Virus record (IMG/VR): IMGVR_UViG_2529292910_000009
Location: 1-45,637 of that record
Source: a virus
Taxonomy: Duplodnaviria; Heunggongvirae; Uroviricota; Caudoviricetes
Strand: one strand, 5' to 3'
Length of the DNA stretch: 45,637 nucleotides
Shown here: in pieces, positions 1-3,000 of the stretch
Numbering within the stretch: position 1 is the first letter of the stretch
How the letters are laid out: every line of letters starts with the position of its first letter
Position numbers: made by a program

Positions 1-3000
1 ATAGCCCGTCATTTCTGCGCTCACACGTCCCAACATTGAAAAACATGCAAAGCTTTGTAAGCCGATGCAAAGCTTTGTGTGTCTCACTTTTGTCCCAATA
101 CCAATCCGAATCCACCCTTTGTCATCATTGAGAAATGGCAAGGAAGAAAAGGATGTTACTGCACGATTTGACAAATCCGCCAGAGCTATCGCATACTGAT
201 CGCACTGAACAAATAAGCGGTCTCCGCACCCGATAGCTTTGCGGCTTTTTTATGCCTGCAATTTGGCATAGTTACATCCGTACAAAGGTCGGGTGGAGAG
301 GCGTAATACAACACCCGCAAGGGGAATATGCCCAGAGCTTCTTATTTGGCTCAGTTGACACCCGACCGCCAGCTACTAACTGGCGGTTATAAACTAAACA
401 AATAAGGAGGTCATCATGACCAGTCAACTCATCCCCGTATTCAACGGTTCTATCTCAAACCAAGCAGCCCTTCTATGCAATGCTCGCAATCTACACGCTT
501 TCCTTGGGGTTGGTAAACGCTTTGCATCGTGGATAACAGAACGTATTGCTGAATATGGTTTCGTTGAAAATCAGGACTATATGATTGCTTCCCAAATTCG
601 GGAAGCAAAAGGTAGAGGCGGTCACAACCGCAAGGAATACCACCTCACCCTCGACACAGCCAAAGAGCTTGCGATGGTTGAACGTAACGAAAAAGGCCGC
701 CAGATACGCCGCTACTTCATCGAGTGCGAAAAGAAACTTCGCAACATTCAGCCAGTACAAACTGAGCAGCAATTCACAGCCGAAGAAATCATCCTCCTTT
801 GCTACATGCAGCTCTGGATGGAAAAAGCCCAGGACCTCAGCAAACACCTGTATCCCATTATGAAAGAGCTGAACTCCTCATACACGAACAAGCTGTATGA
901 CATTGCGTTTGAGACCATCTACATGGTGACGAAGAACAGAGACGCGCTACTAAGGGAGGTAACACATCTCGACATGTCAAGTTCCGTTATCCAGCGGGCC
1001 ATGCCAATGCTGAAAAGTCTGCGGGCAAGACAATTTGAATTCTGAAACCAAAGGAGCTTCGGCTCCTTTTTTCATGCCTGAAGGAAAGGAAAATGGCAGA
1101 TATCATCGACAATGCCGCTGAAATCGAAGAATTGCAGCGCAATCTCTCCCTGCAAAAATACAAATCCGATAGTAATGCCCCATCTGCTACTCATTGTTGC
1201 GAGTGTGGCGATCCGATAGATGAGCGGCGACGCCTGGCTGTTCGTGGATGCCGAGCTTGCGCCAGTTGCCAGCAGGATATTGAACTTATCAACAAACAGA
1301 GAGGTGTGAAGTGAGCATAGACACCACTATAACGATCGATACGGCCCTCAACACAGGTCTGGCGCTTCTTGGTTATTTTTACATTATGTTCTGCGCCGGG
1401 CGGTGGCTATCGCTGTTGTTACTGAAAAAATGGAATAAATGCCGTAAGCAGGATCAACGCCAGAAGGCAATGAATGCGTTTTCCGAAGCCTTCGGGATTG
1501 ACAGCATGGAGCCAGGAGGTCCAGCTCGCGTAATTAGCAGAGGTGACGTTGTAATTCTTGTATACCGGAGCGAAGAGAAAAATGAGCGAGATTAACTATC
1601 AGGTACTGCGTGAAAAGGCAGAAAAAGCAACGCGTGGTGAGTGGTCGCTCGAATATGGAGAGAACCGATTTGATGGTGATGATGCACTAATTCATCGCGA
1701 GGCTGCTGGATATATTCCCATTTGCAGAATTGAAGGAGCACATCCTGAAAGCGGTTTCGATGAAGATTTCCAAATGGAACAGCAGGCCAATGCTGAATTC
1801 ATCGCCGCAGCCAATCCGGCTACCGTGCTGGCACTGCTGAATGAACGGGAAAGAAACCAGCAATACATCAAACGCCGCGACCAAGAGAACGAGGATATTG
1901 CGCTTACTGTTGGGAAGCTGAGAGTTGAGCTTGAGGAGACAAAATCAAAACTCAACGAGCAGCGTGAGTATTACGAAGGTGTTATCTCGGATGGGGGTAA
2001 GCGTATTGCTGAACTGGAGAAAAGCGAAGAGCAACTCATCAATGAGCGTGACCATGCTGAGTCCGCTTTAGATGATATGTACTTTGCAGCAACAGGTAAC
2101 AGGCCGGAGTGGAGCAACTGGTTCGGCTTTTCAGATGCTGTCGATGCCGTGGTTGACAGAATTGCTGATTTAGAAGCTAAACAATGCATTGAAGAGATGA
2201 GTAAACAAAGTTGCGAAGCTCGGGAGCGTGATTTGTTTGAATCATGGGTAATGCATTCAATTTGTATTTCCAAATCGACGCTTGAAGGATTGCGCACCGA
2301 AACTGGATACCGTAACGCGACCTTATCAGGAACAGACTTCAACCGCATGTGGGAACAATGGAAATCTATCCGCGCCGCTGGCATTTCGCATCAAAGGAGA
2401 GTGAGATGGCGTTAACACACCGAGAACTCTGTCAGATTGCGTACAAGTTCCTTAAGCGCAACGGGTTCAAGGTTTGCTTTCATGACCGCTTTATAGCCGT
2501 AACCAGTACCGGAGAACAGCCAGATGCTATGGGATTCAGAAATTCAGCATCATGCCTGATAGAGGCGAAGTGTTCTCGTGCTGACTTGTTGGCAGATAGA
2601 AAAAAGCGTTTCCGTAAAAATCCGTCTCTTGGAATGGGCGACTGGCGATTCTTTATTAGTGAGCCGGGAATTATTTCAATTGAGGATTTACCACCTGGCT
2701 GGGGATTACTTCACGTTGTTAACGGAAGAGTACGGAAAGTACATGGGTGGCCCAAGGGTAATTGCTGTTGGGGTAATCCTGACGATAAGCCATTTACTGG
2801 GAATAAGCAGGTTGAATGCGATTACATGTTATCTGCATTAAGGCGCATGGAGTTGAGAGGGCACCTTAATGAAATATATGACGGTGTAATTGTTAATAAG
2901 AAAGAAGGAAACGCGGCATGATCACTATTACCAAAGAGCGACTACTGACAATCAAGCAGTGGCGCGAAACATACGGACCTGGTATCCGGTCGTACATCTT

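Follow-up and report, generated by a model that had tools for sequence, protein, structure and literature searches.

The N-terminal Bro-N, KilA-N, ORF6N and AntA domains are reportedly interchangeable on a few C-terminal modules including P22AR-C, as set out by Iyer, Koonin and Aravind in 2002 (Genome Biol). Likewise, the mosaicism of lambdoid phages is said to arise via short conserved boundary sequences, from the modular theory of Susskind and Botstein to the later comparisons of HK97, HK022 and HK620. The inversion systems of phage Mu (G segment, Gin), phage P1 (C segment, Cin) and Salmonella (Hin) use a serine invertase and crossover sites of about 26-34 bp, and both orientations are readily found. 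For Ant of phage P22, binding to a repressor has been shown in literature cited by Fogg et al. (PMC3064807), and the similarity of the Ant protein encoded in the nin region of the Stx phage Phi24B to its P22 counterpart lies mostly in the C-terminal ~104 residues (Fogg et al. 2011, PMC3064807). Phi24B ant is expressed after induction and raises late-promoter activity, and when it is deleted, the late promoter pR' reaches about 27-56% of its wild-type activity upon induction (PMC3064807).

The stretch of DNA analysed here (45,637 nt, hereafter the window) is a 933W-like short-tailed E. coli prophage with ~97.6% identity to the stx-less prophage inserted at ynfG in O104:H4, and carries two genes that share a P22AR_C tail. 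One of them (416-1045, + strand, 209 aa) joins this tail to an AntA head and lies at the attR-proximal prophage end in the orientation of the pL operon, and would therefore come to lie downstream of int-attP once the phage circularises. The other (27318-27989, - strand, 223 aa) joins it to an ORF6N head, belongs to the nin region of the pR operon, where it immediately precedes ninB, and is 99.9% identical to the corresponding gene of the O104:H4 prophage. Pfam HMM searches place residues 22-91 of the first product in the AntA family (PF08346; 92.4 bits against a gathering score of 27) and residues 12-98 of the second in the ORF6N family (PF10543; 71 bits against 27.8), while BLASTP between the two N-terminal domains found no similarity. 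The initial annotation had assigned both genes in this way and had read them as two different N-terminal domains on one C-terminal module, which agrees with our domain analysis; its term "Rha" for the ORF6N gene is a loose label only, since this product has no match to the Rha family (PF09669). Going by family names and by Phi24B Ant as a precedent, both proteins may be antirepressors, and we treat this function as putative. The ORF6N gene is preceded on the - strand by a promoter-like site and a structured 5' leader (28043-28266, with the promoter-like site at 28266-28237) that matches the Rfam families isrK (28153-28230) and C4 antisense RNA (28043-28127). This leader lies outside the repeat described below and represents regulatory context for the right gene. 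A search for an orf45-like ORF coupled from upstream to the start of the ORF6N gene found none, and the nearest small ORF ends 50 nt upstream.

The 3' ends of the two genes form a long inverted repeat. Pairwise alignment and base-by-base comparison of positions 770-1072 with the reverse complement of 27291-27593 revealed 298 identical positions out of 303 (98.35%), and this similarity ends sharply on either side, with background identity beyond 769/770 and 1072/1073. The left arm (770-1072, + strand) begins at codon 119 of the 209-codon gene and therefore covers 91 codons (119-209, encoding P22AR_C), followed by the stop codon, a hairpin and a T-run; the right arm (27291-27593, - strand) comprises the last 91 codons of the ORF6N-type gene, also encoding P22AR_C, and the same three elements. 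The arms differ at five positions (window 838, 966, 986, 1018 and 1049), of which two are synonymous, two change a residue (H/R and V/I) and one falls between the stop codon and the hairpin. A repeat search of the 45.6-kb window detected a single inverted pair of at least 40 nt, 758-1072 with 27291-27605 (315 nt, 97%). The by-eye description of a ~300-bp inverted repeat with 4-5 mismatches, in which the last 91 codons and a UUCG terminator recur in inverse orientation, is thus accurate in coordinates, length and content, and the similarity proved neither shorter nor weaker than first read.

In both copies the hairpin is formed by GGAGC-UUCG-GCUCC and followed by U6. The left copy (1050-1072, + strand), AAAGGAGC-UUCG-GCUCCUUU followed by a U-run, folds with -14.2 kcal/mol (z -3.33), and the right copy (27291-27313, - strand), located between the ORF6N gene and ninB, with -15.3 kcal/mol (z -3.27). 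A simple terminator scan flags the right hairpin and misses the left one because part of the T-run is counted into the stem, though folding gives the same structure. Each copy thus ends its gene with a stable GC-rich hairpin that leads directly into a U-run and is a predicted rho-independent terminator, and this hairpin-bearing 3' end is identical across all module alleles discussed below.

The tail shared by the two proteins is the already described Pfam domain P22AR_C. In both products the P22_AR_C profile (PF10548) scores 31.4 bits against a cut-off of 22.4 (E 2.1e-7), spanning residues 116-179 and 129-192, respectively, which settles the domain identity of the module left to be determined by the initial annotation. 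AlphaFold2 (AF2) modelling of the module alone, using a more diverse alignment, predicted a three-helix bundle of ~90 residues with a pLDDT of 93.9 and a pTM of 0.81; a model of the full AntA protein from a shallow alignment reached a pLDDT of 40 and was discarded. The best BFVD match to the module model is a P22 antirepressor protein C-terminal domain-containing protein (TM score by query 0.75, probability 1.00), so the module is predicted to have the same fold as other members of the P22_AR_C family, for which a PDB sequence search returned no solved structure. Well-conserved residues are found at the two ends of the module (FTAEEIILLCYMQLWMEKAQ and LRARQFEF).

Between the arms lie 26,218 bp (1073-27290) with dksA/traR-like, DUF4752 and Ead/Ea22 genes on the + strand. 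The - strand of this segment encodes the LPD5/LPD38 polyvalent protein and the tail, head, portal, terminase and lysis functions, then Q (25371-25904, - strand), RusA, YbcO and NinB (26853-27263, - strand, next to the ORF6N gene). Since Q, the genes for lysis and the complete structural operon all fall within it, this interval does include the entire late operon as had been proposed. The recombination genes of the prophage encode RecT/Bet, YqaJ exonuclease, a RecE-like protein, NinB and RusA.

Further Stx-type and ynfG-inserted prophages show the two loci in the same inverted arrangement, and a search of 50%-representative proteins followed by Pfam assignment showed the module joined to AntA, ORF6N or Bro-N heads. 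We distinguish four module alleles among these relatives (A1, A2, A3 and B). The left and nin loci carry the same allele in the window (A1, 98.3% identical), TOE17 (A1) and JNE120442 (A2), but different ones in O104:H4 (B/A1, 69% identical), Shigella phage 75/02 (B/A1, 66%) and 2013C-3033 (A2/A3, 87.5%). B is the left-locus allele of O104:H4 and the nin-locus allele of phiSTEC1589. In JNE120442 the nin locus holds A2, which usually occupies the left one, and the left locus of the window holds A1, which usually occupies the nin one. These last two cases together imply at least two transfers in opposite directions. Even a whole gene composed of Bro-N and allele B is found at both loci, with upstream junctions that are about 95% identical.

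The left gene of the window is itself a mosaic whose head is nearest to the IMG/VR contig L018, its module to TOE17 and its downstream flank to O104:H4. L018 is 100% identical over positions 1-769 of the window and then drops to 52% in the middle of the module, where it carries allele B; the module of TOE17 is 99.3% identical, its head 76%; and O104:H4 matches at 99.1% downstream and at 98-100% over the ends of the module, with about 52% (52.8%) in the middle. Over its first ~60 nt and final ~50 nt the cassette hardly varies, even between alleles with middles that are ~52% identical, and identity changes abruptly at 769/770, about 831/832, about 1024/1025 and 1072/1073. With A1, A2 and B each present at both loci, allele and locus disagree, and together with these sharp breakpoints this demonstrates exchange between the two loci. 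The left module of the window is nearer to its counterpart in TOE17 (99.3%) than to the right module of the same genome (98.3%), so the transfer predates the window genome. These identities also suggest that the donor of the left copy may have been another phage instead of the co-resident nin gene.

Could the near-identity of the two arms have arisen without any such exchange? If purifying selection on protein and terminator had preserved it with no recombination between the copies, the conserved residues at the module ends and the need for a terminator at both sites would be accounted for. However, synonymous sites are equally conserved, with only two synonymous differences in 91 codons, sister prophages have functional alleles at these loci that diverge by between 10% (A2) and, over the middle of the module, 48% (B), and identity falls to background exactly at 769/770 and 1072/1073. 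We therefore rejected this extremely unlikely explanation as contradicted by both the allele comparison and the mosaic boundaries. The idea that one copy was pasted into the assembly twice draws on the many database proteins with this module that are marked "partial" at contig ends, which indicates that the repeat disturbs short-read assemblies. Yet the copies differ at five positions, each is closer to its own orthologue in an independent complete genome than to the other copy (right arm to the orthologous module of O104:H4, 99.7%; left arm to that of TOE17, 99.3%), and finished genomes contain the same two-locus arrangement; the chance of such an artefact is practically nil and it was likewise rejected. 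What the variation of allele and head combinations across relatives supports instead is that the near-identity of the arms comes from non-reciprocal recombination.

The initial annotation had further described the arms as a recombination substrate that would invert the intervening 26 kb, in which case a crossover by RecA or Red would flip the segment and produce two isomers with different control of the late genes. Both proteins would stay intact because their tails are the same, while ninB-Q and the late genes would come to lie behind the AntA head, where transcription from pL could reach them only via int-attP in the excised, circular form, and the dksA-like, DUF4752 and ead genes behind the ORF6N head in the pR operon. 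Its premise of ample homology stands, since 303 nt at 98.35% identity suffice for RecA and Red; in addition, the prophage carries its own recombination functions and the two loci have evidently exchanged sequence. The inversion itself stands as a possibility only. Neither of the two junctions predicted from the window (R1 and R2) occurs in any of 5,426 complete E. coli genomes, although 162 and 66 of these genomes contain the respective parental junctions and at least about a dozen complete genomes have both arms at high identity. R1 is also missing from all 50,697 phage records searched, both junctions are absent from GTDB species genomes, and none of 125 module copies in the loci examined has recombinant neighbours (AntA with ninB or ORF6N with dksA). 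No invertase or recombinase is annotated in or beside the segment in closely related prophages, nor did Pfam scans of the window ORFs covered detect one, so that neither a dedicated invertase of the Gin/Cin/Hin type nor both orientations among genomes were found, with two ambiguous short metagenome contigs as the only exceptions to the latter.

These two contigs, both short and of low coverage and ending beside the repeat, are the only junction-like sequences among the metagenome matches listed. One (L037/L052, 4,047 bp, of which 1,116 nt of L037 were examined) joins an ORF6N head to sequence downstream of the left locus and is R2-like, and the other (L129, 3,843 bp, 3.5x coverage) joins an AntA head to downstream ninB and is R1-like. 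Taken at face value, they mean that crossover products may exist at low frequency. But the ends of both contigs lie about 30-380 nt from the repeat, as expected of mis-joins or graph tips at a 300-bp repeat, and they may be assembly chimeras; their junctions are found in none of the 5,426 complete E. coli genomes, and EC2, SCU-104 and DETEC-S792 contain both parental halves of these contigs about 42 kb apart. As L129 has just 18 nt upstream of the AntA start, it may also reflect a simple head swap at the nin locus. Altogether, we regard it as unlikely that the arms are a working inversion substrate, and as very unlikely that the phage exists in two isomers, with late expression of the inverted one dependent on excision and the two contigs as real traces of it.

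The repeat is what lambdoid phages ordinarily produce when they swap modules, and nothing about it points to a working inversion switch. It seems likely that its arms are two copies of a mobile cassette of tail domain and terminator and a by-product of module exchange, not a device. This reading builds on the repeat, the domain identities and the modelled fold of its product, the distribution of alleles over loci, the mosaic boundaries and the absence of inverted isomers from finished genomes. We propose that the cassette, a P22AR_C domain plus an intrinsic terminator, would form the end of modular, antirepressor-annotated regulators of 933W-like (Sepvirinae-type) lambdoid prophages at two facing hot spots, one within the pR operon, in its nin region, and one at the attR-proximal end, which would become the far end of the pL operon on circularisation. 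The near-invariant cassette ends may act as crossover sites through which the middle, the whole module or whole genes could be exchanged between the two loci and between phages, presumably by homologous recombination, for which the prophage recombination genes are candidates. In the window, the AntA gene would have acquired allele A1, the usual one of the nin-region gene, in a non-reciprocal transfer by gene conversion or patch replacement. Judged from sequence, the helical module could be a protein-protein interaction surface that serves differently targeted heads with the same partner, either the prophage repressor or the module itself by self-association, and the hairpin would stop transcription unless the RNA polymerase is antitermination-modified. 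The CI repressor of this prophage is encoded at 35245-35952.

The locus thus shows, at the nucleotide level, phage regulators being reassembled from modules, via a cassette of tail domain and terminator with invariant ends that has crossed both ways between two loci within a single prophage lineage, which includes the Stx-converting phages of pathogenic E. coli. This matters because antirepressor-type genes affect how readily such prophages induce, and two differently targeted heads with the same tail probably share the same partner. On the practical side, a ~300-bp repeat with two to four copies per prophage breaks or mis-joins short-read assemblies, and apparent inversions at this site in metagenome contigs should therefore be distrusted.

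Compared to the known systems, the module resembles P22 Ant in scoring above the P22_AR_C gathering threshold and in a model that superposes on a P22AR_C protein in BFVD, but the window heads are AntA and ORF6N instead of P22_AR_N and the profile similarity is modest (E 2e-7). The window ORF6N gene is like Phi24B ant, by description and not by sequence, in genome type, in its position in the pR operon, with the replication genes on one side and Q on the other, and in a P22-Ant-like C-terminus, whereas a second copy at the attR end and an inverted repeat are not discussed in that paper (PMC3064807). Like isrK-orf45-anrP of Salmonella Gifsy-1 (Hershko-Shalev et al. 2016, PMC4825925) and the C4 RNA-controlled ant operon of P1/P7, it is an antirepressor-type gene behind a promoter and a regulatory RNA leader, although unlike in Gifsy-1 no upstream ORF is coupled to its start and the leader is outside the repeat. 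As in the Gin, Cin and Hin segments, inverted repeats flank a segment in a phage or prophage, but here the arms are 303 bp of coding sequence, finished genomes show one orientation only, and no invertase is annotated in closely related prophages. The shuffling of Bro-N, KilA-N, ORF6N and AntA heads is mirrored in the occurrence of Bro-N, ORF6N and AntA with P22_AR_C, seen here at the nucleotide level, in one phage lineage, between two fixed loci and with datable alleles. Lambdoid mosaicism, finally, is recapitulated in the sharp transitions at gene, domain and terminator boundaries and the conserved flanks around a variable core, with the difference that the exchange partners include two inverted loci within one genome. 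The feature is otherwise ordinary and its module already known; what is added is the demonstrated exchange between these two loci.

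The AntA-type gene at the left end of the window (416–1045, + strand) and the ORF6N-type gene of its nin region (27318–27989, − strand) end in one and the same module. Pairwise alignment of 700–1150 with the reverse complement of 27220–27670 revealed a block of near-identity with sharp edges, and base-by-base comparison of 770–1072 (+) with the reverse complement of 27291–27593 (−) gave five mismatches over 303 nt (98.35% identity; window positions 838, 966, 986, 1018, and 1049), two of them synonymous, two residue-changing (H/R and V/I), and one past the stop codon. Each arm comprises the 3' end of its gene, namely the final 91 codons with their stop codon and a hairpin (GGAGC-UUCG-GCUCC, then U6) that folds at −14.2 and −15.3 kcal/mol in the two copies (z about −3.3); the right copy was also picked up by a simple terminator scan. 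A repeat search returned the arms 758–1072 and 27291–27605, separated by 26,218 nt, as the sole inverted pair of at least 40 nt in the whole window. The initial annotation, which had described an inverted repeat of about 300 bp with 4–5 mismatches covering the last 91 codons and a UUCG-tetraloop terminator of both genes, is accurate in every detail. Its proposal that two unrelated N-terminal domains share one C-terminal module holds as well: Pfam recognizes AntA (92.4 bits) plus P22_AR_C (31.4 bits) in the left product and ORF6N (71 bits) plus P22_AR_C (31.4 bits) in the right one, and the two heads lack BLASTP similarity to each other. Since both products match P22_AR_C, the common module is the already curated "P22AR C-terminal domain".

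The window is a lambdoid prophage of the short-tailed, 933W-like kind. Both ends have matches in Stx-converting phages and in Shigella phage 75/02 (Sepvirinae), and positions 1–24,922 align with 97.6% identity at 91% coverage to a prophage from E. coli strains of the O104:H4 type that in strain 2011C-3493 sits in ynfG without stx genes. From the attR side, the + strand carries the AntA gene and dksA/traR-like, DUF4752, and Ead/Ea22 genes. The − strand then encodes an LPD5/LPD38 polyvalent protein (2893–8013), tail, head, portal, terminase, and lysis genes, Q (25371–25904), RusA, YbcO, NinB (26853–27263), the ORF6N gene, and beyond it toxin-antitoxin modules, replication genes, cII, and cro. 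Back on the + strand follow an S24-type repressor (35245–35952), a eukaryotic-type Ser/Thr kinase in the pL operon (37086–37922; Pkinase 118 bits) as in 933W-type phages, and a RecE-like protein, a RecT/Bet homologue, and a YqaJ exonuclease heading toward int, which itself lies outside the window. Because the AntA and pL operons share their orientation, the map implies that the AntA operon would lie downstream of int-attP after excision and circularisation. A hairpin with a 17-bp stem at the attR-proximal edge (43–82, +; ACATGCAAAGCTTTGT...) would then sit just 3' of int-attP and could be a sib-like or att-arm element.

Several other features of the map deserve mention. The polyvalent protein (LPD5/LPD1/MuF_C/LPD38) has 1,706 aa in the window. 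In O104:H4, JNE120442, and phage 75/02 its gene spans about 8.4 kb, enough for roughly 2,790 aa, and the difference suggests a large in-frame internal deletion. Dense 9-nt-periodic direct repeats with collagen-like Gly-X-Y coding (16600–17600, −) fall within a 679-aa tail-fibre ORF (16244–18283). Direct repeats of 41–49 nt (92–100% identical; 33509–33594 and 34281–34433) lie within and just upstream of an O-like replication gene (33168–34250) and may be origin iterons or a local duplication. The early-right region contains a hok/sok module with a full-length Rfam match to the sok antitoxin RNA (30102–30276, −; 117 bits), and an STnc100 sRNA match just downstream of Q (24871–25032, −) occupies the position where the pR'/qut leader is expected.

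The repeats had also been proposed as substrates for recombination that would invert the intervening 26 kb. Q and, as stated initially, the whole late operon do map between the arms. We constructed queries for the two junctions that inversion would create (R1, AntA head–module–ninB side; R2, ORF6N head–module–dksA side) and counted matches at a coverage of at least 80%. Of 5,426 complete E. coli genomes, 162 contained the left and 66 the right parental junction, and none contained R1 or R2; GTDB species genomes likewise contained neither, and R1 was found in 0 of 50,697 phage records. Anchored pattern scans of IMG/VR yielded 22 AntA-anchored and 17 ORF6N-anchored copies, and among the 125 module copies typed from these and further loci, 38 combined AntA with dksA, 45 combined ORF6N with ninB, and 8 combined AntA with a PAPS-reductase variant of the left locus; AntA with ninB and ORF6N with dksA each occurred in 0 of the 125. 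An ORF6N head with the PAPS-type left-locus flank was seen at two loci, both representing one contig (L037 = L052, IMGVR_UViG_3300014804_000109) with a switch point within the last ~45 nt of the ORF. A metagenome scan with R1 had one contig among the matches listed (L129, ERZ507723 NODE-715), in which a full AntA-headed gene with a patchwork module, preceded by 18 nt that match the left locus, lies ahead of ninB-ninE. Both contigs are short, at 4,047 bp (L037) and 3,843 bp (L129, with 3.5x coverage), and each breaks off within some 30–380 nt of the repeat; their junctions occur in no complete genome of the E. coli set, and the halves that they join lie about 42 kb apart in the parental arrangement of strains such as EC2, SCU-104, and DETEC-S792. 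We regard them as possible chimeras introduced by assembly, or else as rare recombinants, and neither establishes an inverted isomer; we consider a real inversion that rewires the late genes from pR to pL very improbable. Most database proteins with the module (P0001–P0033 and P0047–P0070) are annotated as "partial" and lie at contig ends, so the repeat routinely breaks short-read E. coli assemblies.

The best-supported explanation is that a modular family of regulators has been subject to ordinary lambdoid mosaicism. We compared all module copies at both loci of seven genomes and phages and distinguished four alleles. Allele A1 comprises both copies of the window and of TOE17 and those at the nin locus of O104:H4 and of phage 75/02; A2, which shares about 90% identity with A1, comprises the left copies of 2013C-3033, JNE120442, phiSTEC1589, and Sakai Sp5 as well as the nin-region copy of JNE120442; A3 is the nin copy of 2013C-3033; and B (66–70% overall) is found at the left locus of O104:H4 and of 75/02 and in one of the nin copies of phiSTEC1589. 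A1, A2, and B are thus each present at both loci, and identity between the left and nin copies of one genome is 98.3% in the window, TOE17, and JNE120442, 87.5% in 2013C-3033, and 66–69% in O104:H4 and 75/02. Because A1, normally a nin-locus allele, occupies the left locus in the window and A2, normally a left-locus allele, occupies the nin locus in JNE120442, at least two transfers between the loci have taken place, in opposite directions. The left copy of the window is closest to that of TOE17 (99.3%) and its right copy to the nin-locus copy of O104:H4 (99.7%), so the transfer into the left locus predates this genome. In the TOE17 sister prophage (NZ_CP069093.1, 2.459–2.488 Mb), the whole structural region has been lost, with nothing left between the lysis genes and the left-end genes; both antirepressor-type genes are retained, each with module A1.

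Segment-wise comparison places sharp mosaic boundaries at the module. IMG/VR contig L018 is 100% identical to window 1–769, drops to 52% in the module middle (allele B), and shows no relationship beyond the module. At the O104:H4 left locus, identity is 99.1% downstream, 85.6% in the head, 52.8% in the module middle, and 98–100% over the 62 nt and 48 nt that begin and end the module; for TOE17, the module is 99.3% and the head 76% identical. Protein constraint alone is insufficient to explain the conserved ends because, in contrast to the saturated middle, they show no changes even at synonymous sites, and they appear to be recombination anchors. A cassette of tail domain plus terminator would be exchanged by way of these ends between two loci, which face each other by chance, leaving the inverted repeat as the trace of one non-reciprocal event. 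The recombination genes of the prophage (RecT/Bet, YqaJ exonuclease, RecE-like, NinB, and RusA) make such exchange plausible, though we only infer their involvement. A 50%-representative module search followed by Pfam found P22_AR_C behind Bro-N, ORF6N, and AntA heads and in a few deletion chimeras with the P22 tailspike head-binding domain, gp7, or O protein. Tandem pairs are common at either locus in IMG/VR and annotated genomes (e.g., ORF6N + A, then Bro-N + B), and the Bro-N + allele-B gene occurs at both loci with upstream junctions about 95% identical. Window 1–681, including the first 266 nt of the AntA gene, is 99.9–100% identical to the upstream region and truncated AntA pseudogene that lie ahead of a second, complete AntA gene in IMG/VR contigs L012, L016, and L017; a deletion that fused the members of such a tandem may have produced the single AntA gene of the window.

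Both antirepressor-type genes are preceded by structured RNA elements. A full-length Rfam match to sRNA-Xcc1 (287–375, +; 69 bits) lies directly 5' of the AntA gene. For the ORF6N gene, a strong sigma-70-like promoter (TTGACA-18-TATATT; 28266–28237, −) is followed by a leader with Rfam matches to isrK (28153–28230, −; 69 bits) and C4 antisense RNA (28043–28127, −; 66 bits), an arrangement that resembles both the Gifsy-1 isrK-orf45-anrP operon and the ant operon of P1, which is under C4 control; no upstream ORF coupled to the start of the ORF6N gene was found.

Sequence searches detected no solved structure for the module. An AF2 model of the whole protein reached a pLDDT of 40, and a module-only model (30-sequence alignment) was confident (pLDDT 93.9, pTM 0.81), with helices at residues 5–34, 40–65, and 73–90 and a P22 antirepressor C-terminal-domain protein as its best viral structural match (TM 0.75). 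Folds of this type are typical of protein-binding or self-association modules, and P22_AR_C may play such a role; in that case the two window proteins, despite their different heads, would presumably engage a common partner through the same helical tail. We do not expect these findings to surprise specialists, inversion with rewired late genes being the only exciting reading. The domain, its promiscuous fusion to varied heads, and phage mosaicism are already known, RefSeq names for these genes are already domain-based, and what this case adds, modestly, is exchange in both directions between two inverted loci. The nearest experimental precedent for the function of the window proteins is the nin-region Ant of Stx phage Phi24B, whose similarity to P22 Ant lies mainly in the ~104 residues at the C-terminus and whose deletion lowers late-promoter activity after induction to about 27–56% of wild type (PMC3064807).
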